64,000 nt of DNA from Allomuricauda sp. (GTDB taxonomy: Bacteria > Bacteroidota > Bacteroidia > Flavobacteriales > Flavobacteriaceae): NCBI GenBank assembly GCA_041391945.1, contig JAWKNC010000001.1:189817-253816 (forward strand), given 5' to 3'. Of this stretch, positions 10,453-62,398 are shown piece by piece. Under the pieces are notes generated by a model that was not told where the DNA came from, did no database searches, and saw nothing but the letters and a program-made list of their open reading frames with translations. Positions within the stretch are counted from its first letter, which is position 1; each line of letters opens with the position of its first letter. A program made the position numbers and the translations under genes.

Positions 10453-11643
10453 ATGAAAACAGCATATATCGTAAAAGCATACAGAACCGCAGTGGGCAAG
10501 GCACCCAGAGGTTTGTTCCGGTTTAAAAGACCCGACGAACTGGCAGCGGAGACCATTGAATACATGATGAAAGAACTGCCCCAATTGGACAAAAAGCGTA
10601 TTGATGACGTAGTTGTGGGCAATGCCATGCCAGAAGCCGAACAGGGATTGAACATGGCCCGGCTCATTTCCCTAATGGGGTTGAACATTGAGGATGTTCC
10701 AGGAGTGACCATCAACAGATACTGCGCCTCTGGGTTGGAGACCGTTGCCATAGCCACGGCCAAGATCCAATCAGGCATGGCAGATTGTATCATTGCGGGA
10801 GGGGCAGAGAGTATGAGCTATATCCCTATGGGAGGATACAAGCCCACACCGGATTATGCCACGGCAAAAGAAGGGCATGAAGATTATTATTGGGGAATGG
10901 GTTTGACGGCCGAAGCAGTGGCCAAACAGTTCAAGGTTTCCAGGGAAGATCAGGATGTATTTGCCTATAACTCCCACATGAAAGCCTTGAAGGCCCAGGA
11001 AGAAAACCGGTTCCAAGATCAAATTGTCCCAATAACAGTAGAACACACCTTTGTGAACGAAGCGGGAAAAAAAGAGACCACTTCCTATACCGTCAATAAG
11101 GATGAAGGGCCACGAAAGGATACCAATATTCCAGCCTTGAACAAGTTGAGACCTGTGTTTGCCGCTGATGGAAGCGTAACCGCAGGGAATTCTTCCCAAA
11201 TGAGCGACGGTGCCGCCTTTGTGATGGTCATGAGCGAGGAAATGGTGAAGGAACTAAATCTGGAACCCATTGCCCGCCTAGTGAACTATGCTGCGGCTGG
11301 GGTTGAACCAAGAATCATGGGGATTGGCCCGGTAAAAGCCATTCCAAAGGCATTGAAACAGGCCGGTGTGCAACAAAATGACATCGAATTGATCGAATTG
11401 AATGAAGCCTTCGCCTCACAATCGCTGGCCGTTATCCGCGAATTGGGTTTGAACCCAGAAATAGTCAATGTAAATGGTGGAGCCATTGCGCTAGGGCATC
11501 CTCTGGGCTGTACCGGTGCTAAATTGTCCGTGCAACTCTTTGATGAAATGCGAAAACGCAACATGAAAGGAAAATACGGAATGGTGACCATGTGCGTGGG
11601 CACAGGACAAGGAGCGGCTGGTATTTACGAATTTTTAAATTGA
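10453..11643 (+). CDS. fadA: Acetyl-CoA C-acyltransferase (thiolase)
   Basis: NRYCASG, TAGNSSQMSDGAA, NEAFA, GGAIALGHPLG, MCVGTGQG. Confidence 0.95.
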   Translation: MKTAYIVKAYRTAVGKAPRGLFRFKRPDELAAETIEYMMKELPQLDKKRIDDVVVGNAMPEAEQGLNMARLISLMGLNIEDVPGVTINRYCASGLETVAIATAKIQSGMADCIIAGGAESMSYIPMGGYKPTPDYATAKEGHEDYYWGMGLTAEAVAKQFKVSREDQDVFAYNSHMKALKAQEENRFQDQIVPITVEHTFVNEAGKKETTSYTVNKDEGPRKDTNIPALNKLRPVFAADGSVTAGNSSQMSDGAAFVMVMSEEMVKELNLEPIARLVNYAAAGVEPRIMGIGPVKAIPKALKQAGVQQNDIELIELNEAFASQSLAVIRELGLNPEIVNVNGGAIALGHPLGCTGAKLSVQLFDEMRKRNMKGKYGMVTMCVGTGQGAAGIYEFLN

Positions 11644-12076
11644 TTAAAAGAACCAAGCGCCAGGATAAAAAGAGAAAAGACTGTGAAAAGACACAATTTC
11701 AAAAAGTTAAAAATCTGGCAAGAAGGCATGAATTTGGTAGATGAAACATACAGAATAGTCAAGGGATTTCCACGTTTGGAAAAATTCAACCTTAGCTCCC
11801 AACTGATACGATGTGCCGTTTCCATTCCTTCAAATATTGCTGAAGGAACGAGCAAATCAACGGACAAACACCTCAATAGATATATTGAAACCAGCTTGGG
11901 TTCTTCTTTTGAGTGGGAAACACAACTTATTGTTGCACTGAACCAAAAATATATTTCAATAGAGCAATTTGAACTTTTAGAACATAAAATACAGCAATTA
12001 CAAAAAATGATTTCAGGATTTCAAGGTGGGCTTAGTTTCGAGTCCTGATTCTTGCTTCCTGGTTCTTAAATCTTAA
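11644..12076. mobile_element. Putative intervening element: four-helix-bundle gene bracketed by imperfect inverted heptamer repeats
   Basis: AAGAACCA (11648-11655) / TGGTTCTT (12060-12067) plus AAGACT/AGTCCT inner ends; inserted between fadA and the acyl-CoA dehydrogenase. Confidence 0.5.
11683..12048 (+). CDS. Four helix bundle protein (23S rRNA IVP / bAvd-like family)
   Basis: LKIWQEGM, EKFNLSSQLIRCAVSIPSNIAEG, SLGSSFEWETQL; GTG start; AT-rich. Confidence 0.9.
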   Translation: MKRHNFKKLKIWQEGMNLVDETYRIVKGFPRLEKFNLSSQLIRCAVSIPSNIAEGTSKSTDKHLNRYIETSLGSSFEWETQLIVALNQKYISIEQFELLEHKIQQLQKMISGFQGGLSFES

Positions 12077-12080
12077 AAAC

Positions 12081-13892
12081 ATGAATGCAGAAACCCTAAA
12101 CAAAGACATTCTAAGAGGCGGCCAGTTTTTGGTGAAAGAGACCAAATGTGAGGACGTATTTACTCTGGAAGACCTGAACGAAGAGCAAAAAATGATGCGC
12201 GAAAGCACCAAGGAATTTGTAGACCGAGAGCTTTGGGCGCACTGGGAGCGTTTTGAGAAAAAAGACTATGCCTATACCCAGGAATGTATGCGCAAGGCCG
12301 GTGAACTGGGATTGTTGAGTGTTGCCGTACCTGAAGCTTACGGTGGCATGGGTATGGGATTTGTGTCCACCATGTTGGTATGCGACTATATTTCTGGCGC
12401 AACAGGTTCCTTTAGCACCGCCTTTGGTGCCCACACAGGAATTGGCACCATGCCCATCACCTTATATGGAACTGAGGAGCAAAAACAAAAATATGTGCCC
12501 AAACTGGCTTCAGGGGAATGGTTTGGGGCGTATTGCCTTACCGAACCCGGTGCCGGTTCCGATGCCAATTCTGGAAAGACCAAAGCCGTTCTGTCCAAGG
12601 ATGGTAAATACTACAGCATCACCGGACAAAAAATGTGGATTTCCAACGCTGGATTCTGCAATATGTTCATAGTTTTTGCACGCATCGAGGATGATAAATA
12701 CATCACTGGGTTCATTGTTGAGAATGATCCCAACAATGGCATCACCTTAGGTGATGAAGAGAAAAAACTGGGTATCCATTCCTCCTCTACCCGCCAAGTG
12801 TTCTTCAATGAGACCAAAGTGCCCGTTGAGAACATGCTATCCGAAAGGGGAAATGGATTTAAAATAGCCATGAATGCCCTTAACATTGGTAGAATCAAAT
12901 TGGCTGGAGCTTGTTTGGAAGCGCAACGAAGAATCATCAACGAAGCCACAAAATATGCCAACGAGCGCATTCAATTCAAAACACCCATCATAAACTTTGG
13001 GGCCATCAAAGCAAAGATTGCCGATATGGCCACCAATGCCTATGTGGATGAGTCTGCCTGCTACCGCGCCTCCAAGAACATTGAAGATAGGATTGCCATC
13101 CGGGAAGCTGAAGGTAATTCCCACCAAGAGGCTGAACTCAAGGGGGTTGAGGAATATGCCATTGAATGTTCCATTCTAAAGGTTGCTGTTTCGGAACATG
13201 TGCAGCACACAACCGATGAGGGCATCCAAGTTTTCGGGGGGATGGGCTTTAGTGCAGATACCCCCATGGAATCGGCCTGGAGGGACGCCCGTATTTCCAG
13301 AATCTATGAGGGAACCAATGAAATCAATAGAATGCTGGCCGTGGGCATGTTGGTGAAAAAAGCCATGAAGGGCCATGTGGATCTTCTGGGCCCAGCTATG
13401 GCCGTGGGTGAGGAATTGATGGGAATTCCCTCCTTTGACACTCCCGATTTCTCCCAACTATTTTCAGAAGAAAAGGATATGATCGCCCGTTTGAAAAAAG
13501 TGTTCCTGATGGTTGCCGGAAGTGCCGTCCAAAAATTTGGACCGGATCTGGAAGAACATCAAATGTTGCTGATGTCCGCAGCAGACATCCTTATCCAGAT
13601 TTATTTGGCCGAATCTGCGATTCTTCGCACCGAGAAAAATGCAAAACGGTTTGGTGAAGAGGCCCAGGCGGCCCAAATTGCCATGTCCAAATTGTATCTG
13701 TACAGGGCCGTTGACATCATTGCCCAAAAAGGAAAGGAAGCCATTGTTTCCTTTGCCGAAGGTGATGAACAACGCATGATGCTCATGGGGCTCAAACGTT
13801 TTACGAAATATACAAATCAACCCAACGTCGTAGCCCTCCGTACCCAAATTGCGGATAAAGTGGCTGCGGATAACGGGTATACCTTTGACTAA
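12081..13892 (+). CDS. Acyl-CoA dehydrogenase
   Basis: [59 protein letters not shown]. Confidence 0.95.
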
Positions 13893-46497: not shown

Positions 46498-47592
46498 CTA
46501 AAAACCATTCAAGGCGAAAAGGCGGATTTGTTCCTTCTTGCCCCGTAGTTGAAGTTTGGCAATTTCCCAGAATTCCATAGATTCAGTTTCCTTCAATTTG
46601 TCCCTCAACTGTTCGGACACCAAAATCTTGGTGCCATAATTGTTGCACTGATCTTGTATGCGTGCCGCTGTGTTGAGCACATCTCCCGTGTAGATGATCT
46701 CCTTTTTTATGACCCCTATTTCGCCCGTGGTCACCAATCCCACATGGTACCCTGCCTTGAACGACGGAAAAAAATTGAACTTTTTTTCATAACGGGCCTT
46801 TTTCTGTTCCAAGGTTTTTGAAATGCGCAGAAAGCATTCAATGCAATTGTTTTTGTACAATCCCATTTTTTCTGGCCAAGTGATCACTATCTCATCGCCA
46901 ACATACTGGTATATTTCGCCAGAAGTTTCCAAAATGGGATTGGCCATATCCGCGTAATAGTCCTTCAGCAGTTCAAAAAACTTGGCATGTCCCAGCTGTT
47001 CGGCAATGGTTGTTGAGGATTTCATGTCCAGGAACATGAAAATACGGCTTTCCCGCTTTGGGGTATGATATTTTCCAAACAAGAAGTTTAGGAATACCCC
47101 GGTTCCGACATAGATGGAGAGTTCTGCAAAGAGCATGGCAATGAGCAAGGCGAATGCAATATAAACGACCACGCTCCAAAACGTATACCTTCCCACAAAA
47201 AATTCGACACTTTGGATTACTTCCTGACTTAAGATCGGTGCATCAAACCTTCTTGAGTTCACCGCAAAGGACAACATAATCAGAAATAGGATGATAAAAC
47301 CCGTATAGAATGAAGTTTTGATTGAAATCTTTGTCCATAATCTACTCTTGGCCAGTTTTTTGCTAAGCCATGTCACCTCTATCCAACCGTGGATCAAGCC
47401 CGTGAGGAAACCGCCCACACTTGCATAGATGAGCGAACTTTTAAAATCATATTTGTTGTGGGTGGTAGGGTAATATTCCAATCTTCCCAAAATGCCCTGT
47501 TCTATAATACTGTACACTAGGCCAAAAAGGAACCAAATACAGGCGAACAACAAGGCCTGTTTGGCATAACGGATGTATTTGGGATGGAACAT
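46498..47592 (-). CDS. Membrane-anchored class III nucleotidyl cyclase
   Basis: Several TM helices, then FMFLDMKSST, YQYVGDE, GDVLNTAARIQ. Confidence 0.85.
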   Translation of the reverse strand: MFHPKYIRYAKQALLFACIWFLFGLVYSIIEQGILGRLEYYPTTHNKYDFKSSLIYASVGGFLTGLIHGWIEVTWLSKKLAKSRLWTKISIKTSFYTGFIILFLIMLSFAVNSRRFDAPILSQEVIQSVEFFVGRYTFWSVVVYIAFALLIAMLFAELSIYVGTGVFLNFLFGKYHTPKRESRIFMFLDMKSSTTIAEQLGHAKFFELLKDYYADMANPILETSGEIYQYVGDEIVITWPEKMGLYKNNCIECFLRISKTLEQKKARYEKKFNFFPSFKAGYHVGLVTTGEIGVIKKEIIYTGDVLNTAARIQDQCNNYGTKILVSEQLRDKLKETESMEFWEIAKLQLRGKKEQIRLFALNGF

Positions 47593-47732
47593 GATGATTA
47601 AAGGTAGCACATTATCAAATACGTTTGGAATTGCGGCCAATTTGGGGATATACGGTATGTCTAACGGTGAAAAATTTTAATGCCTCGCTAAAAATGAGTA
47701 CATTAAATGGTTAATTCGATAATTTCGAAACC

Positions 47733-50492: not shown

Positions 50493-53400
50493 ATCAAACG
50501 GTCTGTTTACATAATATTTATTGTATGCTTTGCCATGGACTTCCTTCAAGGGCAGACCAATCCGATAGACAGTTTGCAAAAGAGGTACCACGAGGTAGAT
50601 TCGGACTCCTTGCGCATCCGTATCTTGAAGGATATTGCGTGGGAATACCTCAATAATCGTGGCAATGCGGAACTGGCAAAGAAGCATATCGATAGTTTTT
50701 ACACTATCAGCAAAGAAGCCAATATCCCTTGGGGAATCACCATGGCCAACTACCAATATGCGGTACTGGACAGGCAGAAGGGAAACTATAGCAAAGCCCT
50801 TGCCCATATTGACGGATACCTCGATTCCCCAATCACCCAAAAAGAGCCTTTTGCCATAGCCAACGGACTGTACCAAAAGGCCTTGATCCTTGACAATTAT
50901 GGCAGTTTAGAGGAAAGCTTGAAAATCTATTACGATATCCTCAAGATCTACGAAAAGCAAAAAGATTCCTTTAGCTATGCCTTTACATTGAATGCCATGG
51001 GCGAAATCCAAAAAAAGACTGGAAAAATGTCCGAAGCCATGGAAAGCTACGAGCATGCTCTGGGTATTTTTAGAGATTTGGGCGACAAAACGGAAATTGC
51101 CAATTGCCTTTTCAACATAGGGGACACCTATCTACAACAAAAACAATACGATAAGGCACTGGAGTACTTGAACAAATCCTTGGCCTTGGATGAAGAGACC
51201 AACAGCGAATGGGGAAAAGCTTTTGATTATGAGGCTCTGGGGAAGGTATATGGTCATCAAAAAAAATATGCCCAATCTTTGGAATACCACAAAAAGGCGT
51301 TGGAACTCAGGGAAAAGTTGGGGCAAAGGTTGGAACTCTCCATGAGCCATACCCAGATTGGCATCATAAATCTAAAAATGAAAGATTTCGCCAATGCCGA
51401 GGAAAGTATTCTTAAGGCCATAGAAGTTTCCAAGGATATTGGCGCAAAACCCCAACTCCAGGAAAATTATGAAATCCTCTCCCAGATATACGAACAAACT
51501 GGGGAATACGAAAAAGCACTGACCTTCAAAAATAAATTTGTCACACTGAAGGACAGTCTGTTCACCGAGGCCAAATCCAGGCAAATTGAAGAACTTCAGG
51601 TGCGGTTTGACACGGAAAAAAAACAGGATGCCATTGCTGCACTTCAAAAAGATGCCGAAATAAACGACCTAAAGCTCCGTCAGCAAAAAACACTCCGTAA
51701 TGTGGTCATCGGTATTGCCCTTGCAGGTTTGGTGTTCCTTTGGTTCGCCTTTAACCGATACAAACAGGCTCAACGTGCCAAGCAGGCCGAAGAGGAGAAG
51801 AAAAGAGCCATTTTGGAGGAACGGAAACGCACCGAAATTGAGAAACAACGGGTAAGCGAGCTTCAAAAAATAGACAAACTCAAGGATGAGTTCCTGGCCA
51901 ATACCTCCCACGAGCTTCGAACTCCTCTGGTGGGGATCATCGGTCTTACGGAGTCCCTGAAAGATGGTGTGGCCGGCAAACTGCCAAAGGCAGCTTTGGA
52001 AAACCTGGATATGATCGCCAATAGCGGCAAAAGGCTCTCACATTTGGTGAACGATATCCTCGACTTTTCAAAATTGAAGAACAAAGATTTGGAATTATCG
52101 CCAAAGCCAGTGGATGTCCATGCTATTTCCAGTATCGTTCTACGCCTGTCCAACCCATTGGTAAAGGATAAAAAATTAAAACTGATCAATTCCATTCCCA
52201 AAGAGGTGCCCTTGGTTGAGGCCGATGAAAACAGACTCCAACAAATATTGTACAATTTGGTGGGCAATGCCATCAAGTTTACGCACAAGGGGTACATTAC
52301 CCTGTCCTCGGAAATACAGGAAAATAGGCTTGCCATATCGATTGCCGATACCGGAATAGGAATCCAAGATGATAAATTGGATATCATCTTCAATTCCTTT
52401 GAGCAGGCGGATGGATCCACACAAAGGGAATATGGCGGTACGGGACTTGGGCTTTCGGTGACCAAACAACTGGTAGAACTCCATGGTGGTACTATAAGTG
52501 CCTCTTCCGAAAAAGGCAAGGGTTCCATTTTCACCTTTACACTTCCGCTAAGCACCAAAAAGAGAAAGGACCTTAAAAAGGAGGACTACACCCCGGAGGA
52601 TTTCGTCCAAAACATAGTCGCTCATGATGAAGATTTATCCATATCCGGAAAAAGGCCCAAATCTTCAGAGGAAGCCGCCAAAATACTTATTGTTGATGAC
52701 GAGCCCGTCAACAGACGGGTCTTGGAAAACCATTTGACCGTTGCCGGATACGACATAACCGAGGTAAGCACGGGAAAAGGAGCCTTAAAGTTGCTTGAGG
52801 AAGATGCATCCTTCAACTTGGTTCTGCTGGATATCATGATGCCCGAAATTTCCGGTTATGAGGTCTGTGAAAAAATCCGAGAAAAATACCCGGCCAGCGA
52901 CCTGCCCATCATTTTACTCACGGCAAAGAACACGGTCAGTGATCTTGTGACCGGTTTCAACTCGGGGGCCAACGATTATTTGACCAAGCCCTTCTCCAAG
53001 AATGAACTTTTGAGCCGGATCAAGACCCACCTCAACCTCAACACCATCCATAGGGCCACTTCACGATTTGTGCCAGCAGAATTTGTGCGTTCCGTGGGCA
53101 AGGAATCCATCACGGATATTCGGCTGGGAGATCACATTGAGAAAAGTGTAACCGTTCTGTTCTCCGATATTCGGGACTACACAACCCTTTCCGAAAGCAT
53201 GACGCCCACCCAGAACTTTAAGTTCGTCAATGCGTACGTGGGTCGTATGGGACCCATCATCAAGGACAACGATGGTTTTGTAAACCAGTATATGGGAGAC
53301 GGAATCATGGCCCTATTCCCCAAAAAACCTGAAAATGCCTTGGATGCCGCCATAGAAATGCAACGGACCTTGGCCCTTTATAATAAAAGAAGAGTCGAGG

Positions 53401-53918
53401 AAAAAGGCTATAAACCGCTATCTGTTGGGATTGGGCTCCACACAGGGCCATTGATCATGGGCATCATTGGCGATTCCAAAAGAAATGATCCCGCGGTGAT
53501 TGCCGATACCGTAAACAGTGCCGCCAGGGTGGAGGGCGTCACCAAATATTTTGGGGCCAACATCATCATCAGTGAGGACAGTCTAAAATTAATGGAGGAT
53601 CCCTCAGGTTTCAATATTAGATATTTGGGAAAAGTGCGGGTAAAGGGCAAACAAAAAGCCATCGAAATTTATGAATGTATCGATGGCGACAGTGTGGAAA
53701 GCATCTCCTTAAAACTGGAGACCAAAAAACATTATGACGAGGGCATAGACCTCTTTTTCAACAGTCAGTTCAACGAGGCTTCCACAGCGTTTGAGTGGGT
53801 CCTCTACAAAAATCCAGGGGATTCCGTAGCCAAATACTTCAATGAAAAAGCCAAGAAATATGCGGTATTGGGTATTCCCGAGGATTGGGCATCAGGAACC
53901 GTACTGTACGAAAAATAG
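50493..53918 (+). CDS. Hybrid sensor: periplasmic TPRs - TM - HisKA/HATPase - REC - class III cyclase
   Basis: TPR repeats; TM VVIGIALAGLVFLWFAF; NTSHELRTP; NLVGNAIKF, DTGIG, GTGLGL; REC VDDE/LLDIMMP; cyclase LFSDIR, GDG, NSAARVE. In-frame ATC at 50493 restores a signal peptide (first ATG is 50535). Confidence 0.9.
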   Translation: MKRSVYIIFIVCFAMDFLQGQTNPIDSLQKRYHEVDSDSLRIRILKDIAWEYLNNRGNAELAKKHIDSFYTISKEANIPWGITMANYQYAVLDRQKGNYSKALAHIDGYLDSPITQKEPFAIANGLYQKALILDNYGSLEESLKIYYDILKIYEKQKDSFSYAFTLNAMGEIQKKTGKMSEAMESYEHALGIFRDLGDKTEIANCLFNIGDTYLQQKQYDKALEYLNKSLALDEETNSEWGKAFDYEALGKVYGHQKKYAQSLEYHKKALELREKLGQRLELSMSHTQIGIINLKMKDFANAEESILKAIEVSKDIGAKPQLQENYEILSQIYEQTGEYEKALTFKNKFVTLKDSLFTEAKSRQIEELQVRFDTEKKQDAIAALQKDAEINDLKLRQQKTLRNVVIGIALAGLVFLWFAFNRYKQAQRAKQAEEEKKRAILEERKRTEIEKQRVSELQKIDKLKDEFLANTSHELRTPLVGIIGLTESLKDGVAGKLPKAALENLDMIANSGKRLSHLVNDILDFSKLKNKDLELSPKPVDVHAISSIVLRLSNPLVKDKKLKLINSIPKEVPLVEADENRLQQILYNLVGNAIKFTHKGYITLSSEIQENRLAISIADTGIGIQDDKLDIIFNSFEQADGSTQREYGGTGLGLSVTKQLVELHGGTISASSEKGKGSIFTFTLPLSTKKRKDLKKEDYTPEDFVQNIVAHDEDLSISGKRPKSSEEAAKILIVDDEPVNRRVLENHLTVAGYDITEVSTGKGALKLLEEDASFNLVLLDIMMPEISGYEVCEKIREKYPASDLPIILLTAKNTVSDLVTGFNSGANDYLTKPFSKNELLSRIKTHLNLNTIHRATSRFVPAEFVRSVGKESITDIRLGDHIEKSVTVLFSDIRDYTTLSESMTPTQNFKFVNAYVGRMGPIIKDNDGFVNQYMGDGIMALFPKKPENALDAAIEMQRTLALYNKRRVEEKGYKPLSVGIGLHTGPLIMGIIGDSKRNDPAVIADTVNSAARVEGVTKYFGANIIISEDSLKLMEDPSGFNIRYLGKVRVKGKQKAIEIYECIDGDSVESISLKLETKKHYDEGIDLFFNSQFNEASTAFEWVLYKNPGDSVAKYFNEKAKKYAVLGIPEDWASGTVLYEK

Positions 53919-54038: not shown

Positions 54039-55175
54039 TTATCTCCTGACGAACGATAGTCGGGATTTAATATGTTTAAAGGAAATCGACCGTATCCATA
54101 TCCTTGCCGGTTGTTCAAAATACCTGAAGGACAGCCATGCACTAACGCCATTGCAAAGTAGCATGAAAAGCAATGATAGCAACAATATGATAGTGCCAGG
54201 ATTTTCGCCAGGGTGTGCCGATACCCAATATTGCATCCCGATCCAATAGCCAAATAACCAAAGCGCTTGGAACATATAAAGCGAGAAGGAAATATCCCCA
54301 AAAAAACGTGCGGTACGGTGTGAGGCCAACCGATGAAGTACCCCTTTGTTGTGAGCCAAACTCAATATGACTGCCGCAAAAAATCCGACGGTAATGATAT
54401 CTTGCACCCCATAATGCATGCAGACCACGATCATGGTTAGGAATCCTACTCCAACGATGTCCTTTTCAAAGAAACCGCGGCCAATTTCCGACCTAAACGC
54501 TTGGTAGACCAATATGCCCATGGAGAACTCGGAGATACATCTAAAAAGACCAAACTCCCACGTAGTGTTCAGATTTCCTTCTTCATGCCATCCCGGAATA
54601 AGGAACAACAGTCCAATACCTACAATTGTCAACACCGAAAGGGTTAATTTCCTTTTCTTGAACAGCCATACGAAAACGGGGATCATAATCAGGTAGGTCC
54701 ACCATTCCGCTCCTATGGACCATGCCGGCATGTTCCAGCTCAATCCACTTGGATCTCCAAAGGTTTCCCCAAAAATCAGGTGTCTCCAAAATCCTTCCCA
54801 GGGATAAACAAATGCAAAATCCGATGCGGTCTTGGGCGCCAATGCGAGCAGAGACCCAAAAAAGATGAGATGAATAAAAAGCTGTAACAAATGCAATGGA
54901 TACAGCCTTGCAAACCTGGCCTTGATAAATGAGGCTATGGTCTCGAAACTGGGCGTCTTGAACTTATCGCCATACACATGTGTAATCACGAAGCCGCTCA
55001 AAATAAAAAAGAAATCGACCCACAGATATCCTTTGCCCAATAGCATACTAGCATCCCTCGATATTAGAGTGGGCAATCCCGTAAATGAAGTGACCTCATC
55101 GAAATGAAAGATGACCACCCAAATGGCTGCCAGTCCCCGTAAGGGAGTCAATGTTCCTATATATTTTTTCATCAT
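54039..55175 (-). CDS. Acyltransferase family 3 (OafA-like) membrane protein
   Basis: LRGLAAIWVVIFH, VDFFFILSGFVI, RFARLYPLH, WSIGAEW, GDISFSLYMFQ, RYFEQP. Confidence 0.9.
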   Translation of the reverse strand: MMKKYIGTLTPLRGLAAIWVVIFHFDEVTSFTGLPTLISRDASMLLGKGYLWVDFFFILSGFVITHVYGDKFKTPSFETIASFIKARFARLYPLHLLQLFIHLIFFGSLLALAPKTASDFAFVYPWEGFWRHLIFGETFGDPSGLSWNMPAWSIGAEWWTYLIMIPVFVWLFKKRKLTLSVLTIVGIGLLFLIPGWHEEGNLNTTWEFGLFRCISEFSMGILVYQAFRSEIGRGFFEKDIVGVGFLTMIVVCMHYGVQDIITVGFFAAVILSLAHNKGVLHRLASHRTARFFGDISFSLYMFQALWLFGYWIGMQYWVSAHPGENPGTIILLLSLLFMLLCNGVSAWLSFRYFEQPARIWIRSISFKHIKSRLSFVRR

Positions 55176-55232: not shown

Positions 55233-58200
55233 TTATGCCATAACCGATTCCTCTTGATTTTTGTTCGACATGGCGTGATAACCAACATATCTATTCTGTA
55301 CCTTTTTTTGAATCTCCGTGACCCAATATTGGTCCATAGTTTGCTCTTCTTCAAGCATTTTTTGAAATCTCCCTTCCATTTTCAAATAGGCCAACAACGG
55401 TATTTTTGGGGCTTTGGAATCCAGCTGTAAAGGCAATCGGCCCTCTTCAATCATTTTTGGGTCGTGCCTGTACAATAACCACTGCCCCGACGCAACCGCC
55501 GCTTTATGGTATTGCGATGGGTTTTTCATATCGATGCCATGCGAAGGGCTATGGCAATAAGCAATGATAATGGATGGCCCTTGGTGTTTTTCGGCTTCAA
55601 CAAATGCATTGAGTGTCTGTTGTTGATCGGCACCAATGGCCACCGAAGCCACATAAACATCCTCGTAATTCATGGCCAATAAACCCAAGTCCTTCTTTTG
55701 TTTCTTTTTGCCCCTAGCTGCAAATCGGGCCGAGGCGCCATAAGGGGTAGCCTTGGACATTTGCCCTCCCGTGTTGGAATACGCTTCATTGTCCAAAACC
55801 AAAATATTGACGTTCTCGCCAGATGCAAGGACATGATCTAGGCCGCCATATCCAATATCGTAGGCCCAACCATCGCCCCCAACAATCCAAACACTCTTTT
55901 TTACCAAGCTCTCCACTAGGTTGAGCAGTTTTTTGGCATCGTCGGATTCTATTTTTTGCAGCTGGATTTTAAGTGTCTCTATTCGATTTCTTTGTTGATC
56001 AATTTCCAAGTCACTGGATTGTGGCGCATTCAGAATCGCCTCGACCAAATCACTGTCGAGATATTGGGCCATCTTTGCAAGCAAATCTTTGGCTTGATTT
56101 TCCTTTTGGTTTAGGGACAACCGAAATCCAAGACCAAATTCCGCATTGTCCTCGAAAAGTGAGTTGGACCATGCCGGCCCCCTACCCTGTTCATTTTTGG
56201 ACCATGGCGTAGTGGGCAGTGCACCACCAAAAATGGAACTGGCACCAGTAGCATTGGCCACCAACATGCGATCTCCGAAAAGTTGGGACAACAATTTTAA
56301 ATAAGTGGCCTGTCCACAACCATCCTCCCCCATGGGATATTTGAACAAAGGCTCCTGCAATTGTTGCTGACCGACTTTATTTGTATCCAATTTGGTCCTA
56401 TCGAACTCTGGTATAGTTTCAAAATACATCCAGTTTTCCCTTTCTTTTTCGATTCTGGATAGGCTCTTGTTCATCATCAAGGCCTTCGCTGGACAGGCAT
56501 CCACACAATTGTTGCAGGACGTACATTGATCTGGGTTAACTTGAATGGTATAGTTCAACAAGTCGAATCCTTCCATTTCTTCCATAAATTCCATGGATTT
56601 GAAACTGGATGGTGCACCATTTTTGATTGTGTTTTCAAAAGCCTTTATACGCAATGCACCAGACGGACAGGCCATGCTGCAGGCCCCACATTGGGTACAC
56701 AGATCGGTATTCCACTCGGGAAGTTCCACAACCATTTTCCTTGTATTGTGTGTTGAAGTACCTGTGGCAAAGGTTCCATCCACTGGCAATAGGCTCACTG
56801 GAAGTTCATTCCCTTTTCCGGCCAAAAGGCTTCCCAAAAGGGTTTTGGAAAATACTTCATCTTGGGAAAGTATACTTTCATTTTCCAAAATTGAAGTATC
56901 CACTTTTCTGATGAGCTGCCCCAAAGTTTCAAGAGCTGAATTCTGGTTCGCCCCACTTTTCAAAGCAAAATACGATGCGTGCAATCCTGAAACAGCATAT
57001 CCGTTCATCATATAACTGCTGGATAAGACTTCACTGGGAGCAACATATACATCAAGACTTTTCTCCTGAATTAGTTTCTGGGTTCTGCATGGAAGTGTTC
57101 CCCAAAAACGGTCTGGTCCTGAGTCGGATAGTACCAAGAGGGTTCCTGAATTTTGAACGTTCTCCAAAACCGAATCCTGCTCCACAAAAGCCACATCATC
57201 ACAGGCCACAAAATTGGCATGCTGTATCAAATAAGGAGCCTTTATGGGTTCGGGAGCCATACGCAAATGGGAAACATTCCTGGAATTGGATTTTCTATAA
57301 TCGCATTCCATATAGCCCTGCACAAAATTTTCGGTAGTTTCTCCCAATAGCTTTAAAATGACATTGAATTGTTCCTGTGTTTTATCGGTTTTGGTTTGAT
57401 AGAAAAGGGCCTGTTCAAATTTCGATGGCAAGTTGAATCCATCGACCGGAAGGCTCAAGTGGGTAACATCATCCAAAATACCCACAGTGAAATTGTTTTT
57501 GGGTTCCTTGCGTTTTAGGTTGTCCACAAGAGTTTTGACCATGGCAGGGGTAAATTCCTTGGAACTCAACCCATAGCGTCCCCCAACTATTTTTGGGAAT
57601 GAGTCAAATCTATTGCATTGTGCAACGGACTGGACCACATCCAAATACAAGGGCTCACTCGTGGAACCAGGTTCTTTGGTTCGGTCCAATACGGCAATGG
57701 CGCTGCAAGATTTGGGCAAGCTGTTGATGAAATGATCAACACTGAAAGGTCTGAACAATCTAACCTTGACCAAACCTATTTTTTCGCCCTGTACATTCAA
57801 ATGGGCGATGGTTTCCTCCAAGGTCTCCGTAGCAGAGGCCATGGCAACGATCACCTGCTCAGCCTCTGGATGTCCTATATATTCAAAAATCTTGTGCTGT
57901 CTGCCCGTGAGCTCGGCAAATTCATCCATTTTATGCTGAACGATGGTTGGACAAGCATCATAATAGCAGTTGACGGCCTCCCTGCTTTGAAAGAATACGT
58001 CCGGTCCTTGGGAAGTTCCCCTGATAACTGGGTTGTTTGGGTCAAGAGCCCTATTTCGATGGGAGTTGACCATATCTTCATCGATCATACTGCGTATGGC
58101 ATGATCTGTAATTTTTTCAATTTTTGATACTTCATGGGAGGTTCTGAACCCATCAAAGAAGTGTACAAAAGGTATTCTTGATGCCAACGAAGCGGCTTGT

Positions 58201-58670
58201 GATATCAAGGCGAAATCCATAGCTTCCTGCACGGAACCTGAAGCCAAAAGGGCATATCCAGTATTTCGTACGGCCATAACATCGCTATGGTCCCCAAACA
58301 CCGAAAGCGCATGCGTTGCCACCGATCTTGTGGCCACATGGATTACGTTAGGGGTAAGCTCCCCTGCTATTTTATACATATTGGGCATCATCAATAACAA
58401 CCCTTGTGATGCGGTAAAGGTGGTTGACAATGAACCGGTCTGCAATGCGCCGTGCATGGCTCCCGCCACCCCGGCTTCACTTTGCATTTCAAAAGTTGCG
58501 GGGACATTGCCAAAAATATTTTTATGCTGGTATGCACTCCATTCCTCAACCAACTCGGCCATTTCAGAAGCCGGAGTAATGGGGTAAATGGGAAAAACAT
58601 CATTGATGCGGTAGGCTACATGTGCTACGGCCTGATTTCCATTTACGATTATGTGTTTTTGGTTTTTCAT
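55233..58670 (-). CDS. nifJ: Pyruvate:ferredoxin/flavodoxin oxidoreductase homologue with degenerate proximal Fe-S and CoA-binding sites
   Basis: YPITP, MQSEAG, TASQGLLLM, FFDGFRTSHE, two CxxCxxCxxxCP motifs, GDGWAYDIG, YSNTGGQ. Start set to ATG 58670. Confidence 0.9.
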   Translation of the reverse strand: MKNQKHIIVNGNQAVAHVAYRINDVFPIYPITPASEMAELVEEWSAYQHKNIFGNVPATFEMQSEAGVAGAMHGALQTGSLSTTFTASQGLLLMMPNMYKIAGELTPNVIHVATRSVATHALSVFGDHSDVMAVRNTGYALLASGSVQEAMDFALISQAASLASRIPFVHFFDGFRTSHEVSKIEKITDHAIRSMIDEDMVNSHRNRALDPNNPVIRGTSQGPDVFFQSREAVNCYYDACPTIVQHKMDEFAELTGRQHKIFEYIGHPEAEQVIVAMASATETLEETIAHLNVQGEKIGLVKVRLFRPFSVDHFINSLPKSCSAIAVLDRTKEPGSTSEPLYLDVVQSVAQCNRFDSFPKIVGGRYGLSSKEFTPAMVKTLVDNLKRKEPKNNFTVGILDDVTHLSLPVDGFNLPSKFEQALFYQTKTDKTQEQFNVILKLLGETTENFVQGYMECDYRKSNSRNVSHLRMAPEPIKAPYLIQHANFVACDDVAFVEQDSVLENVQNSGTLLVLSDSGPDRFWGTLPCRTQKLIQEKSLDVYVAPSEVLSSSYMMNGYAVSGLHASYFALKSGANQNSALETLGQLIRKVDTSILENESILSQDEVFSKTLLGSLLAGKGNELPVSLLPVDGTFATGTSTHNTRKMVVELPEWNTDLCTQCGACSMACPSGALRIKAFENTIKNGAPSSFKSMEFMEEMEGFDLLNYTIQVNPDQCTSCNNCVDACPAKALMMNKSLSRIEKERENWMYFETIPEFDRTKLDTNKVGQQQLQEPLFKYPMGEDGCGQATYLKLLSQLFGDRMLVANATGASSIFGGALPTTPWSKNEQGRGPAWSNSLFEDNAEFGLGFRLSLNQKENQAKDLLAKMAQYLDSDLVEAILNAPQSSDLEIDQQRNRIETLKIQLQKIESDDAKKLLNLVESLVKKSVWIVGGDGWAYDIGYGGLDHVLASGENVNILVLDNEAYSNTGGQMSKATPYGASARFAARGKKKQKKDLGLLAMNYEDVYVASVAIGADQQQTLNAFVEAEKHQGPSIIIAYCHSPSHGIDMKNPSQYHKAAVASGQWLLYRHDPKMIEEGRLPLQLDSKAPKIPLLAYLKMEGRFQKMLEEEQTMDQYWVTEIQKKVQNRYVGYHAMSNKNQEESVMA

Positions 58671-58708
58671 GAGGGTGGATTGTGACTTTGGTAAGGTGGA
58701 TTCAAATG

Positions 58709-58741
58709 AATAAGCCACTCCAAAAATGGGAGTGGCTTATT
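58709..58741. terminator. 13-bp perfect hairpin between the OsmC-like and PFOR-like genes (terminator or mRNA stabiliser)
   Basis: aataagccactcc-aaaaatg-ggagtggcttatt; weak U-tract on the sense (minus) strand. Confidence 0.6.
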
Positions 58742-58750
58742 TCATGCCTA

Positions 58751-59302
58751 TTACTTTTCGAACTCGATGGTAACAGGAGTTGGGTTGGTCAACATATCGA
58801 ATACGGGGGAGAATTGGGCCAAAGCTCTCAATTGCTCTTCAGAAGCGTCAGTCTTTACCTTGAATTTTACAGTAATACCGTTGTATCCTTTTCTAACTTC
58901 AGGGTCAAGACCCAAGAATCCGTGAAGGTCAACATCACCGGTCAAAGAGGACTCAGCACCTTCAATTTCAATTCCGTTGGCAGCGGCATGGTAAGCCATG
59001 GCACCGGTCAAACAAGAACCAAGGGCGTGCAAAACAATCTCTGCAGGGTTGGGTGCCTGGTCTTTTCCCAAAAGAACCTCAACGTGGTCAGCTTCCATGG
59101 TAAAGGAATCTTTTCTTGTTGGGTGCTCTTGTCCTACACCGTAATAATCTTGGATGCTGGTCACACAGTGACCTCCTTCGATCCAATTGTTTTTGGCCCT
59201 GAACTCGAATTTTGCCAATTCAGGATTTCCTTGTACTGCGTTGATAGTATCTACCAACTGATCTACGTTTACTCCGTTTTTAATGTTTGCTGTTGTAATC
59301 AT
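58751..59302 (-). CDS. OsmC/Ohr family protein
   Basis: NGVNVDQL, LLGKDQAPNPAEIVLHALGSCLT, GDVDLHGFLGL, SPVFDMLTNPTPV. Confidence 0.88.
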   Translation of the reverse strand: MITTANIKNGVNVDQLVDTINAVQGNPELAKFEFRAKNNWIEGGHCVTSIQDYYGVGQEHPTRKDSFTMEADHVEVLLGKDQAPNPAEIVLHALGSCLTGAMAYHAAANGIEIEGAESSLTGDVDLHGFLGLDPEVRKGYNGITVKFKVKTDASEEQLRALAQFSPVFDMLTNPTPVTIEFEK

Positions 59303-59396: not shown

Positions 59397-59424
59397 CAAC
59401 GATATTTTGTATCATGTTAGGTAG

Positions 59425-59482
59425 CGAAATTTCATTAATCAACGAAATTTCGTGAATTTATTTATGAGATTTCGTGAATTTA
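59425..59482. promoter_or_regulatory. Putative upstream activator sequences for the sigma54 activator
   Basis: Palindrome ACGAAATTTCGT (59442-59453), partial copy CGAAATTTC (59425-59433), direct repeat ATTTCGTGAATTTA at 59447 and 59469. Confidence 0.7.
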
Positions 59483-61330
59483 TAGAGGCCGGGCTATGCC
59501 CAATGCCTTTATTCTGGAGGTAAGTGTGGTCGGGGGGATTCCCAAAAGTGCGGCAGCACCTTTTTCCCCAGAAATTTTCCAACGGGTCTTTTTCAGGGCC
59601 TTCAAGATATTATCCTTTTCCAACCCAAGGAGTTCTTGGGACGTGTAGATATGATCTTCTTCAATTTGGGTGACCGTCTGCTTGCTTCCGCTTACATCGG
59701 GGATGATGTTGGACCAATCAATTTCCCCATCTTTTGAAACGATGATGGCACGCTCCACCAAATTTTGAAGCTCCCTTACGTTGCCAGGCCAATCGTACTG
59801 CAAAAAAAGTTTCTTTTGCTCCGCTGTGAAAGGATTTATTTTCCGATTCAGTTTTTTGGAAAAATGCCGTACCATGTTTTCTGCAATCAGGCTTACGTCG
59901 TTGCCCCTATCCCGCAGGGCAGGGATCTCTATCGGAAAAACGTTCAACCTATAATAAAGGTCTTCCCTAAATTTTCCATCCTTGGAAAATTGCAGCAAAT
60001 CCCGGTGCGAGGCTGCTATAATGCGGACATCCACCTTTTGTGTGGTGGAGCTTCCCACGGGATCAAATTCCCCTTCTTGGATTACCCTCAGTAATTTGGG
60101 TTGAAGATCCAACGGAAGCTCCCCAATCTCATCCAAAAAGATGGTACCCTTGTCCGCCAGGGAAAACCGGCCTTTTCTACTTGCGGTGGCACCGGTAAAA
60201 GCGCCTTTTTCATGCCCGAAGAGTTCACTCTCAATCAAATTGGCAGGAATGGCCCCACAATTGATACGGATCAACGGTCCATGGGCCCGGTTACTAGCTG
60301 CATGGATGGCCCTGGCCACCAGTTCCTTTCCCGTTCCCGTTTCGCCATGGATCAGTACCGTGGCTTCGGTGTGAGCCACCTGTTTGATCAAATCCAGAAC
60401 TTTTTTGATAGCTCTGTGCTGGCCTATGATGCCGTGATCATTGGTAAGTTCCTTTATCTCCTCCTGCAAATATTGAGTCTGACTTTGCAGGGAAGTTATC
60501 TCGTTTTCTGCTTTTAGGCGATCATCGATGTTACGCAATATTAAGGTATAAAATGTGTCCGTTTCATTTCCATACCTACTGATGGTGCCTTCATTGAGCG
60601 TCTCTTTTTCATCAGACCCAATAACCTTGATGACTTGCGGCAAATAGGTGTTCATAACTTCCCGTTTGCCCTTTTGGCTTGATGCTATCAGAGATTCCAA
60701 CAGCTCTGCACTGGCATCGTCCAAAAAATAAAGCAGGTTCCGTTGAATCACATCATCATTCTGGAACAGAGCCTGCGCCGAGGCATTGGCCAAGACTATC
60801 CTAAAATCGGTATCGAACATGATTATGGCATCCATGGCCCCATCAATGAGCCCGGTCATTTTGGAATTGGCCAGTTCTACCTCTTTTTTAGAAGCCGATA
60901 ATCTTTCCTGAATGATATCCAGTTCCCGGTGCCTTTTGATCAATACCGACAAAACTCCCATGACAAAACCTTTATCCGAGCCGATCAGATTGGAAAAATG
61001 GGATGATTTTATCTTTAAAAGCGTGGTGTCCTCTTCCGCGGTAACCGATACAGATCTCGGTTTTTGGTCCAATAGAGCATATTCCCCGAAACATTCCCCT
61101 TTGGACAATGAACCATAACGATGTTCCTTATCATGCACCTTTACCTTACCTTCAAGTATGACGTACATGCCATCCCCAACATCTCCCTTCTCAATAATAC
61201 GGTGGGTTTTACCAAAATGCTCCTCTTCCGAATTTCTGCAAAGTTCCAAAAGCGAAACTTTTTCCACCTCGGAAAAGAAAGGAACTTCTTTTAGGAAATC
61301 TACCAATTCACGAAGTCGGGTTGAGGTCAT
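59480..61330 (-). CDS. Sigma54-dependent activator (bEBP): cNMP-binding - PAS - AAA+ - HTH
   Basis: FGEYALLDQKPRSVSV phosphate-binding cassette; PAS GAMDAIIMFD; GETGTGKE, ESELFGHEKGAFTGA, FLDEIGE, DLYYRLN, WPGNVRELQN; GAAALLGIPPTTL. Confidence 0.92.
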   Translation of the reverse strand: MTSTRLRELVDFLKEVPFFSEVEKVSLLELCRNSEEEHFGKTHRIIEKGDVGDGMYVILEGKVKVHDKEHRYGSLSKGECFGEYALLDQKPRSVSVTAEEDTTLLKIKSSHFSNLIGSDKGFVMGVLSVLIKRHRELDIIQERLSASKKEVELANSKMTGLIDGAMDAIIMFDTDFRIVLANASAQALFQNDDVIQRNLLYFLDDASAELLESLIASSQKGKREVMNTYLPQVIKVIGSDEKETLNEGTISRYGNETDTFYTLILRNIDDRLKAENEITSLQSQTQYLQEEIKELTNDHGIIGQHRAIKKVLDLIKQVAHTEATVLIHGETGTGKELVARAIHAASNRAHGPLIRINCGAIPANLIESELFGHEKGAFTGATASRKGRFSLADKGTIFLDEIGELPLDLQPKLLRVIQEGEFDPVGSSTTQKVDVRIIAASHRDLLQFSKDGKFREDLYYRLNVFPIEIPALRDRGNDVSLIAENMVRHFSKKLNRKINPFTAEQKKLFLQYDWPGNVRELQNLVERAIIVSKDGEIDWSNIIPDVSGSKQTVTQIEEDHIYTSQELLGLEKDNILKALKKTRWKISGEKGAAALLGIPPTTLTSRIKALGIARPL

Positions 61331-61456: not shown

Positions 61457-62398
61457 ATGACCATTACCCAACTTCAATATGTTCTGGCTGTTGCGGAGTA
61501 CAGGAACTTTACCCTGGCGGCCGAAAAAAGCTTCGTAACCCAACCTACCTTGAGCATGCAGGTTCAAAAATTGGAGGATGAATTGGACGTGCTCATATTC
61601 GATCGTAGCAAAAAACCGATTTCCATCACCGAAGTGGGCACAAAAATAGTGGCGCAGGCGAAGAACATTGTAGCGGAAGCGGAACGCATCAAGGATATTG
61701 TAGATCAGGACAAAGGGTTTATTGGTGGAGACTATATCCTGGGAATCATCCCCACGGTGATGCCCACCCTATTGCCCATGTTCCTGAACACCTTCATCAA
61801 AAAATATCCAAAGGTCAATCTCATCATCAAAGAGCAGCCTACCGATGTGATGATCCGCAATATTTTGGACGGACATTTGGACGCGGGCATTGCCGCGACT
61901 CCCTTGGAAATAGAATTCATCAAAGAACGGCCGCTGTACTACGAACCCTTTGTGGGTTATGTGCCGAACAACCATCGGCTGTTTCCGGAAAAAATGCTGA
62001 CCACCGAACATTTGGATGTCAATGACATCCTTTTGTTGCAGGACGGCCACTGTTTTAGGGATGGGGTCATCAACCTTTGCAAATCTCCCAGAAGTGCACA
62101 CAGTGAACAGTTTAAAATTGAGAGTGGCAGTTTCGAGACCTTGGTAAGCCTTTCCGATGAGGGTATGGGAATGACCTTGTTGCCCTATTTGAACACACTT
62201 CACCTAGACAAAGCGAAAAAGGAAAATCTACGGCCTTTCAGGAGTCCTTCGCCAGCTCGTGAAATAAGCCTTATTTACCACAAAAGCGAACTCAAGATAC
62301 AGATTACGGAAGCCTTGAAAGAGGTTATCTCCGGTATCGTGCGGGGTGCCATAGCTTTTCAGGATGTGAAAATTATAAGTCCATTGGCCAAGAGTTAG
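61457..62398 (+). CDS. oxyR: Hydrogen peroxide-inducible LysR regulator OxyR
   Basis: NFTLAAEKSFVTQPTLS HTH; GHCFRDGVINLC carries both redox Cys. Confidence 0.92.
   Translation: MTITQLQYVLAVAEYRNFTLAAEKSFVTQPTLSMQVQKLEDELDVLIFDRSKKPISITEVGTKIVAQAKNIVAEAERIKDIVDQDKGFIGGDYILGIIPTVMPTLLPMFLNTFIKKYPKVNLIIKEQPTDVMIRNILDGHLDAGIAATPLEIEFIKERPLYYEPFVGYVPNNHRLFPEKMLTTEHLDVNDILLLQDGHCFRDGVINLCKSPRSAHSEQFKIESGSFETLVSLSDEGMGMTLLPYLNTLHLDKAKKENLRPFRSPSPAREISLIYHKSELKIQITEALKEVISGIVRGAIAFQDVKIISPLAKS

Follow-up and report, generated by a model that had tools for sequence, protein, structure and literature searches.

In canonical pyruvate:ferredoxin oxidoreductase (PFOR), the electrons of hydroxyethyl-thiamine pyrophosphate (hydroxyethyl-TPP) leave singly through a proximal, a medial and a distal Fe-S cluster, and coenzyme A (CoA) bound to domain III then attacks the acetyl carbon (PMC13768988). 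A review from 2026 and a primary study from 2025 describe the proximal cluster of domain VI and the binding of CoA by domain III for every PFOR and every 2-oxoacid:ferredoxin oxidoreductase (OFOR) (PMC13768988, PMC12337175). The known exceptions among the OFORs lose other parts: two-subunit enzymes are found without domain V, and oxalate oxidoreductase (OOR) works without CoA but has three clusters and a YPIRP motif (PMC5020499). Here we describe the gene of a PFOR variant, identified in a stretch of 64,000 nucleotides from Allomuricauda sp. (assembly GCA_041391945.1, contig JAWKNC010000001.1, positions 189,817 to 253,816), which is called the window in the following. It is very probable that this gene encodes a functional, neofunctionalised single-chain PFOR paralogue of single origin, which has kept the TPP/pyruvate site and the domain with two clusters, has lost the proximal cluster and CoA binding, and is part of a fixed gene module. 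In the literature on PFOR and on flavobacterial genera, no report was found of a PFOR that lacks the proximal cluster, or of a pairing of PFOR with OsmC.

The variant was compared with four described systems. With single-chain PFOR of the NifJ/PorA type (D. africanus 1B0P, M. thermoacetica 6CIN) it shares the domain order I-II-III-IV-V-VI, the TPP motifs, the YPITP motif with its Arg and the ferredoxin domain with two clusters. It differs from these enzymes in the absence of three of the four proximal Cys and of the Gly-rich CoA loop (some members are without domain III), in a degenerate EKR motif, in its gene context and in the evolution of its clade, which is 2-3x faster than that of the canonical sister clade. 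OOR of M. thermoacetica (5C4I) also belongs to the OFOR superfamily and works without CoA. However, OOR has all three clusters and YPIRP (PMC5020499), in contrast to the variant with YPITP and without the proximal cluster. The similarity between the two is distant (E = 1e-17), and the scores for NF045791 and NF045792 are far below the cut-offs of these models. The same lesion as in the variant was described for Cys mutants of Sulfolobus tokodaii OFOR1 (StOFOR1), which without the [4Fe-4S] cluster and CoA convert pyruvate to acetaldehyde non-oxidatively (PMC5020499). These mutants are engineered forms of a two-subunit enzyme without ferredoxin domain, whereas the variant is a natural, selected single-chain protein with domain V. 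Functionally, it can be compared to the E1 component of 2-oxoacid dehydrogenases, which together with lipoyl-E2 feeds Ohr/OsmC, and in which TPP-dependent decarboxylation passes two electrons to a disulfide. Ohr and OsmC are Cys-based peroxidases which are recycled by dihydrolipoamide, a product of this E1 chemistry (PMC5384416). The comparison is an analogy only: the variant has no homology to E1 beyond the TPP fold, no lipoyl protein is encoded at the locus, and we infer the link between the two systems.

Since two defining features of PFOR are absent, we regard the protein as a new variant within the OFOR superfamily and not, as far as function is concerned, as a PFOR. The family is ancient, under purifying selection, and constitutes a natural exception to the universal proximal cluster and CoA domain. 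TPP chemistry and the outer two clusters are kept, the link between them has been removed, and so has the thiol acceptor. It can therefore serve as a test of the PFOR scaffold without radical one-electron chemistry.

Lost and retained sites in the PFOR variant

The variant is encoded by an uninterrupted open reading frame that starts with ATG; an alternative GTG upstream at 58718 is unlikely to be the start, because the orthologues begin at the ATG. Over its full length the protein matches TIGR02176 (PFOR, EC 1.2.7.1) with 1403 bits at a curated cut-off of 911. The closest solved structure is that of M. thermoacetica PFOR (6CIN), followed by the Desulfovibrio-type structures 7PLM and 1B0P. POR_N, PFOR_II, EKR, two Fer4 motifs and TPP_enzyme_C were identified by Pfam, and PF01558, the domain III family, scores 20.3 bits and thus remains under its cut-off of 27.4. 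Identity to the sampled canonical PFORs of Flavobacteriaceae is 45-51%. Most proteins of the variant family are labelled just "4Fe-4S binding protein", and members are labelled "pyruvate-ferredoxin/flavodoxin oxidoreductase" by JGI. As the variant passes the equivalog cut-off of TIGR02176, metabolic reconstructions would credit these bacteria with a PFOR activity which this paralogue probably lacks.

The gene and its relevant sites are located as follows:

55233-58670, minus strand: PFOR-variant gene (1145 aa), uninterrupted open reading frame with domains I, II, degenerate III, IV, V and VI
55548-55559, minus strand: Y1038-C-H-S1041 (YCHS) in place of YS(H/P)C, fourth cluster Cys; ligand Cys replaced by Ser, Cys two residues earlier
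55761-55880, minus strand: TPP diphosphate/Mg motif GDGWAYD...SNTGGQ, conserved in the family
56241-56243, minus strand: Ala810 (GCC) in ATGASS, canonical ATGCSS, third cluster Cys; two base changes from TGY
56313-56333, minus strand: degenerate CxxC loop of the proximal cluster, M780-G-E-D-G-C785-G786 (canonical G-A-C-x-G-C-G), read from the codons
56400-56720, minus strand: ferredoxin-like domain V with two CxxCxxCxxxCP motifs (medial and distal cluster sites), 8 Cys invariant
56877-57422, minus strand: domain III remnant (residues ~417-598), Gly-rich CoA loop lost, hypervariable

A codon-by-codon reading located the motifs and losses of the initial annotation to within one codon of where it had placed them. 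Where canonical PFORs carry GACAGCG, the variant reads MGEDGCG, with the first Cys changed to Glu and the second (C785) retained. The exchange of ATGCSS for ATGASS by two bases and that of YSPC for YCHS were likewise confirmed; the fourth-Cys motif is AYSHC in the canonical paralogue of the same genome and AYSPC in most PFORs. In domain III, the loop from F423 to N436 (FYQTKTDKTQEQFN, 57363-57404) stands in place of F-YGLGSDGTVGANK of canonical PFORs, and alignments revealed a further deletion of ~32 residues at the end of the domain, as had been noted for both loop and later deletion. YPITP, MQSE, ATR, GDGWAYD...SNTGGQ and both CxxCxxCxxxCP motifs are kept, which agrees with the intact substrate, TPP (QSE, GDG...NTGGQ) and ferredoxin-cluster motifs read earlier. 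The TPP-binding GDG...NTGGQ and the activating Glu of MQSE are present in the window protein and across the family. The variant also carries the Thr of YPITP and the Arg of A(T/A)R, which were described to bind the substrate (PMC5020499).

These losses are neither restricted to the window nor a matter of chance. Of the four Cys in domain VI that ligate the proximal [4Fe-4S] cluster of PFOR (CxxC ... C ... C), three are replaced in all 112 full-length members of the family. The first position is occupied by V or E, rarely by D or A, and the third by A, S or T throughout. The fourth is Ser in 110 of the 112 members, and the shifted Cys next to it, present in 87%, is not retained in all deep lineages. 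The second Cys is retained in the main clade and lost in the deep lineage represented by P0138. In contrast to the proximal site, the 8 Cys of domain V, which form the medial and distal cluster sites, are invariant in the 112 members and in every deep lineage.

To describe the extent of the losses, positions conserved to at least 80% across 66 diverse canonical PFORs were determined, and their retention in the variant family was counted. Almost all of these columns are retained in domains I (46/47), II (32/33), IV (5/5) and V (13/16). Domain VI retains 71 of 77, and the six that are lost (A822, C823, T836, C851, P1081 and C1082 in the numbering of the canonical copy of the same genome) all lie at the proximal-cluster site. 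Domain III retains only 6 of 15, and among the positions lost there are G425, G427, D429 and G430 in the Gly-rich CoA loop; the residues that contact CoA were deduced from conservation. The losses are thus as selective as the initial annotation had claimed.

Domain III also differs from the other domains in its variability. Its mean pairwise identity is 43% within the variant family, compared to 80% in canonical flavobacterial PFORs, while for domains I, II, V and VI values of 63-75% and 70-86%, respectively, were obtained. In a subclade with five members of 963-971 aa, the whole domain is removed by a precise deletion, equivalent to residues ~420-600 of the window protein. These are Zobellia uliginosa (971 aa), a Maribacter metagenome-assembled genome (MAG), an uncultured Croceitalea isolate and two metagenome proteins (records L151:5001-7916 for Zobellia uliginosa; P0062, P0077, P0092; L104). 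They are 77-84% identical among themselves and 66-68% identical to the window protein, and in Zobellia uliginosa the shortened gene still belongs to the module with activator, OsmC-like gene and cyclase. These deletions are the strongest evidence against a canonical use of CoA by the family, and CoA independence, which had been suggested for the window protein, gains strong natural support from these five lineages with the same gene context. A structure model was only partly informative: in an AlphaFold2 model from a 37-sequence alignment, domain III of the window protein is a confidently folded domain, but the segments at TPP and at the dimer interface are of low confidence and the mean pLDDT is 64.6.

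Distribution, selection and origin of the family

A search of 5.8 billion proteins revealed more than 110 full-length relatives of the variant with 59-89% identity. All named relatives belong to the Flavobacteriaceae, including Flagellimonas/Allomuricauda, Maribacter, Zobellia, Tamlana and Mariniflexile, and the family spans at least about 200 species genomes. The loss pattern is fixed in all 112 full-length members and in three deep lineages with 43-47% identity to the window protein, and the frame is open in every complete copy examined. In comparison with the nearest relative (88% identical overall), dN/dS is 0.11 for the whole gene, 0.146 for domain III and 0.074 for the ferredoxin domain V, the lowest value of all domains. 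The variant is under purifying selection. This bears out the view that it is not decaying, and both checks that had been proposed for it, fixation of the same losses in orthologues and a dN/dS below 1, gave this result, in domain III (about 0.15) as well.

In a deeper search of 1.84 billion representative proteins clustered at 50% identity, the full-length proteins among the 150 best matches were considered. Of these, only P0122, P0123, P0127 and P0138 are without the cluster Cys; GxCxGCGE, ATGCSS and the fourth Cys are all present in the remaining ones. The deep lineages differ in the single Cys that is left: P0138 is without the equivalent of C815 and has that of C1071 (numbering of D. africanus PFOR). 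As different single Cys are retained, the shared trait is the loss of the cluster and not a new set of ligands. A tree of 83 proteins places the 19 variants together in a single clade (support 100), which adjoins the canonical Flavobacteriaceae clade and a few other representatives and has terminal branches ~2-3x longer than those of the canonical clade. Since the variant clade is monophyletic, the loss of the cluster happened once. In a sample with one genome for each of 151 genera of the family, the variant was found in 14 genomes at 60-64% identity and in two more at 50% and 46%. A canonical PFOR is present in 17 of the 151 genera, and only 3 have both. The variant arose once, mainly within marine Flavobacteriaceae.

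The genome studied here carries both enzymes. It is a MAG of 3.55 Mb in 14 contigs from a wastewater metagenome, the window being present in DNA runs only, and its nearest relatives according to the OsmC-like gene described below are Flagellimonas. The second PFOR is encoded on another contig (C2:100593-104087, plus strand; 1176 aa from its ATG) and has FSGACSGCGE, ATGCSS, AYSHCGEHG and FYGLGSDGTVGANK intact, so that all four proximal-cluster Cys and the CoA loop are present. About 3 kb from it, a fragment matching a KorB-like OFOR beta subunit was found (C2:97377-97709, minus strand). With the canonical PFOR and the KorB-like match, the bacterium has ordinary 2-oxoacid:ferredoxin enzymes besides the variant. 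This coexistence supports the proposal that the variant was rebuilt for another chemistry.

OsmC-like partner and sigma-54 module

The variant lies in a gene module of conserved order, consisting of a cyclic-nucleotide-binding sigma-54 activator, a sigma-54 promoter, an OsmC-like gene, a hairpin and the variant, and the three deep lineages are arranged alike. The following elements were identified in the window:

46498-47640, minus strand: class III cyclase, membrane type
50535-53918, plus strand: fusion of TPR repeats, histidine kinase, receiver and class III cyclase, convergent with the variant (Pfam)
58703-58745, minus strand: GC-rich hairpin between the OsmC-like gene and the variant, -21.8 kcal/mol, z = -4.05
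58751-59302, minus strand: OsmC-like protein (183 aa) with Cys46 (GGHC) and Cys97 (GSCLT), PF02566 match with 53.9 bits
59349-59364, minus strand: sigma-54 promoter TGGCAC-N5-ATGCA, TGGCACGGCAAATGCA, 46 nt upstream of the OsmC-like start
59421-59480, minus strand: repeated AATTCACGAAAT and palindromic CGAAATTTCG motifs, candidate activator binding sites, read from the sequence
59480-61330, minus strand: sigma-54 enhancer-binding protein with cyclic-nucleotide-binding, PAS, AAA+ (GAFTGA) and HTH_8 domains (Pfam; PF00158, 246.8 bits)

The OsmC-like gene is located directly upstream of the variant on the same strand. In 80 loci that were fetched from named genomes with the OsmC-like protein as query, the variant follows directly downstream in all 80. 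In the genus sample, the OsmC-like gene is adjacent in 14 of 15 variant loci, as it is in all three deep lineages. Among the 151 genera, the genomes with an OsmC-like orthologue of at least 67% identity are precisely the 15 variant genomes with the adjacent gene and a single further one. By gene neighborhood, the OsmC-like protein is therefore an obligate partner of the variant. This partner, the putative sigma-54/cyclic-nucleotide control and the single origin of the clade were beyond the reach of the initial annotation. It is also the more conserved of the two: its mean column identity over 19 orthologues is 84%, and it is still 73-75% identical in lineages where the variant is down to 43-47%. 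Cys46, Cys97, His45, His73, His92, His105 and Glu88 are invariant.

Its best solved relative is 2OPL (E = 2e-43, full length), a "hypothetical protein" without assigned function, which has the same Cys on the helix and also an SPV motif in place of the canonical resolving Cys. In contrast to 2OPL, the partner has the invariant residues Cys46 and His92. Of the features that define Ohr/OsmC, the OsmC fold and the peroxidatic Cys on the central helix are present (Cys97 in GSCLT). The resolving Cys in CP(Y/F)S was not found: the motif is FSPV with Ser, and a different invariant Cys, Cys46, lies in the GGHC loop. As to the catalytic Arg and Glu, Glu88 is invariant, and no equivalent of the Arg could be assigned. 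The one NCBIfam match is to the model of an OsmC-related (seleno)protein, below the cut-off of that model. OsmC-like selenoproteins exist, and these relatives and the NCBIfam match fit a redox role for Cys in an OsmC fold.

Variations of this pairing were observed in a few loci. In one genus (genome G119, L063:3471-10190), an OsmC-like orthologue with 67% identity is accompanied by the activator and the sigma-54 promoter, and the place of the variant is taken by a second OsmC-family gene and genes for a UbiE-type methyltransferase, an unknown protein, a PAPS-reductase-like protein and a homocysteine S-methyltransferase-like protein. In G065, a fusion of 2Fe-2S ferredoxin domain, class III cyclase and globin (L146:6653-7981, plus strand) follows an OsmC-like paralogue (49% identical). 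This is another pairing of an OsmC-like protein with a cyclase, here with an obvious gas or redox sensor. Two contigs, a 2.4 kb scaffold filed under the cyanobacterium Moorena producens 3L (L122) and a contig of an alphaproteobacterial MAG labelled Hyphomicrobiaceae (L126), carry the flavobacterial module with an OsmC-like identity of 76-80% and are probably contaminant or mis-binned.

A promoter with GG at -24 and GC at -12 and an adjacent AAA+ activator with GAFTGA, as characteristic for a sigma-54 operon, are both present in the window. Of the 80 orthologous loci, 64 have a relaxed sigma-54 motif at the distance seen in the window, and the other 16 have a GGCA(C/T) -24 box there. The activator lies upstream in about 74 of the 80 loci. 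Its translation probably starts at an internal ATG, as the orthologues are 605-621 aa long. Just upstream of the promoter, the repeated and palindromic motifs were observed, and the G119 locus has similar ACGAAAT-TCGT motifs upstream. The phosphate-binding cassette FGEYAL..PRS(A/V) of the cyclic-nucleotide domain is found in at least 42 of 71 activator orthologues, and one or the other type of class III cyclase flanks the module in most loci, deep lineages included. The flanking cyclases and the conserved cassette make a cyclic-nucleotide input plausible. The cyclase fusion at 50535-53918 is the probable source of the signal; it is found beside the variant in 7 of 16 loci as well as in P0127 and Zobellia, and other loci have a cyclase-transmembrane-TPR protein in its place. 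The module offers a defined output for a cyclic-nucleotide/sigma-54 circuit in Bacteroidota.

The hairpin between the two genes was not called by a simple terminator scan of the window. Of 78 intergenic regions that were folded (loci L065-L144), all 45 that are listed have a predicted counterpart of this hairpin. The stem sequences differ between orthologues but still pair, and a strong T run mostly follows, while the T tail in the window is weak. The hairpin looks like a terminator or attenuator. This suggests a graded expression within the module, with the variant at a lower level than its OsmC-like partner.

Possible chemistry and neighboring genes

It is probable that the variant employs pyruvate in a hitherto undescribed chemistry. 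As a tentative proposal, TPP-dependent decarboxylation of pyruvate could proceed independently of CoA and be coupled to the OsmC-like thiol protein. The variant would bind pyruvate or a similar small 2-oxoacid and decarboxylate it on TPP to hydroxyethyl-TPP; since the cluster-less StOFOR1 mutants still decarboxylate, this step itself should survive in the variant. The canonical route, with two one-electron steps through the cluster wire and subsequent thiolysis by CoA, would be closed. Instead, two electrons might pass in a single step from hydroxyethyl-TPP to a sulfur acceptor supplied by the partner, either its Cys46-Cys97 pair as a disulfide or sulfenate, or else a small disulfide or peroxide that is processed together with it, in parallel to E1 of the 2-oxoacid dehydrogenases, which reductively acylates lipoamide. 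The net result would be a pyruvate-driven re-reduction of a thiol peroxidase-like protein with formation of acetate (or an acyl-thiol) and CO2. A cyclic-nucleotide signal would turn on the module, the hairpin would keep the catalytic variant below the level of the abundant partner, and the ferredoxin domain would be kept mainly for structure or for a side function. A more specific form of the proposal is rather doubtful, namely a new pyruvate-powered thiol peroxidase/disulfide reductase system under a cyclic-nucleotide/sigma-54 switch, in which a protein Cys pair replaces CoA and the Fe-S wire, and hydroxyethyl-TPP reduces and transiently acylates the Cys46-Cys97 disulfide. It would amount to E1/lipoamide chemistry on a PFOR scaffold. 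With the variant family in general, a new path may lead from central 2-oxoacids to the thiol-based stress defence of abundant marine polysaccharide degraders.

Coupling to the thiol protein would explain the partner, the hairpin and the loss of both sites, but it leaves the strictly conserved ferredoxin domain unexplained, and this is one of several observations that weigh against it. The 8 Cys of this domain are strictly conserved and its dN/dS is the lowest, which suggests that the medial and distal clusters serve a purpose beyond this mechanism. The TPP of canonical PFORs is buried deep in a funnel, and a Cys on a protein would need access to it. The partner is extremely conserved, in contrast to the hypervariable domain III, where docking would most obviously be expected. 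With the terminator-like hairpin between the two genes, co-transcription is putative; the OsmC-like protein has FSPV instead of the canonical resolving Cys, and its peroxidase activity is assumed; and in G119 other genes than the variant follow the OsmC-like orthologue. Beyond the binding of pyruvate, we infer every step of the mechanism.

A plain non-oxidative, CoA-independent 2-oxoacid decarboxylase or carboligase is possible, if on the whole unlikely. Hydroxyethyl-TPP would be protonated or ligated, yielding CO2 and acetaldehyde or acetoin/acetolactate from pyruvate; the ferredoxin domain would be only structural, and the OsmC-like protein separately protective, e.g., against peracids or oxidants derived from aldehydes. 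The intact TPP and pyruvate residues and the dispensable domain III speak for such an enzyme, as does the acetaldehyde still formed by StOFOR1 without cluster and CoA (PMC5020499). Moreover, bifunctional PFOR/pyruvate decarboxylase enzymes are known (PMC13768988), and cluster II of the S. tokodaii ferredoxin is a precedent for a purely structural cluster (PMC5020499). However, the strict pairing with a two-Cys OsmC-like protein and the position of the ferredoxin domain as the most constrained domain are left unexplained. Non-oxidative decarboxylation by known OFORs is also slow, which counts against a decarboxylase. The ferredoxin domain, with its invariant Cys and the lowest dN/dS, speaks for a redox relay or sensor. 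In this reading, electrons would pass between the medial and distal clusters, an external ferredoxin or flavodoxin and the Cys pair of the OsmC-like protein, like in ferredoxin:thioredoxin reductase. Alternatively, electrons could be transferred slowly from TPP over a gap estimated at ~20 Å, with pyruvate binding gating the relay or reporting the metabolic state without flux. Tunnelling over such a gap allows only about 1-10 transfers per second, which would suit this role, as would a partner with two invariant Cys and several invariant His and the setting of the module among signalling genes (cyclases and a cyclic-nucleotide-binding activator). We nevertheless consider a relay or sensor improbable: the variant is the output of the regulator and not an obvious input to it, the catalytic residues are kept beyond what mere binding needs (46/47 columns in domain I and 71/77 in domain VI), and no gene for a partner ferredoxin is conserved at the loci of the genus sample.

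It is very unlikely that the variant is still a ferredoxin-reducing PFOR, which would hold a cluster or another cofactor at the proximal site by ligands other than Cys and use an acyl acceptor other than CoA. The score above the equivalog cut-off, the one remaining Cys of the CxxC loop, an acidic residue nearby and the shifted Cys that is common in the main clade would be compatible with this. But P0123, P0127 and P0138 have A or K at the acidic position, P0138 is without the Cys of the CxxC loop, and the shifted Cys is missing in 13% of the main clade. The one universal residue is His1040, which is also present in the canonical paralogue of the same genome. In addition, the two recent papers on the family describe a proximal cluster with four Cys for every PFOR and OFOR (PMC13768988, PMC12337175). 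A replacement cluster or metal site at the proximal position was rejected, as the residual Cys and acidic residues differ between the deep lineages. A new Cys, Cys240, is invariant in the main clade and missing from P0123 and P0138. A decaying pseudogene or an oddity private to the strain can practically be dismissed. Nothing beyond the missing motifs points to decay, and against it stand the open frames, the dN/dS of 0.11, the monophyletic clade and a state shared by more than 110 orthologues and all 80 loci. By this family-wide fixation, the selection and the tree, the reading is refuted, and the strain-private substitutions under relaxed selection, named in the initial annotation as what would speak against a rebuilt enzyme, were not encountered.

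Directly downstream of the variant, the following gene is located:

54039-55175, minus strand: acyltransferase_3, membrane protein

It was considered as an acyl-handling partner of the module and rejected, as only the nearest relative (L064) has the gene. In L045, the variant is followed on the same strand by genes for a TsdA/SoxA-like dihaem cytochrome c, a 225-aa protein with TAT signal and a DsrE-like protein (11608-13759, plus strand). The same three genes occur in L041 and L043 and partly in L044, which amounts to four genera in all, and they look like a set for the handling of thiosulfate or sulfur. In L145, a paralogous OsmC-like gene lies beside a tandem rhodanese. The TsdA-like, DsrE-like, rhodanese and PAPS-reductase neighbors were not used as a clue to sulfur metabolism, being found in few loci or beside paralogues only. 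Divergent from the activator, an OxyR-like LysR regulator is encoded at 61457-62398 (plus strand), which scores 198 bits on the OxyR model at a cut-off of 329. It is kept at this position only by the closest relatives (2 of 15 loci of the genus sample and L064).

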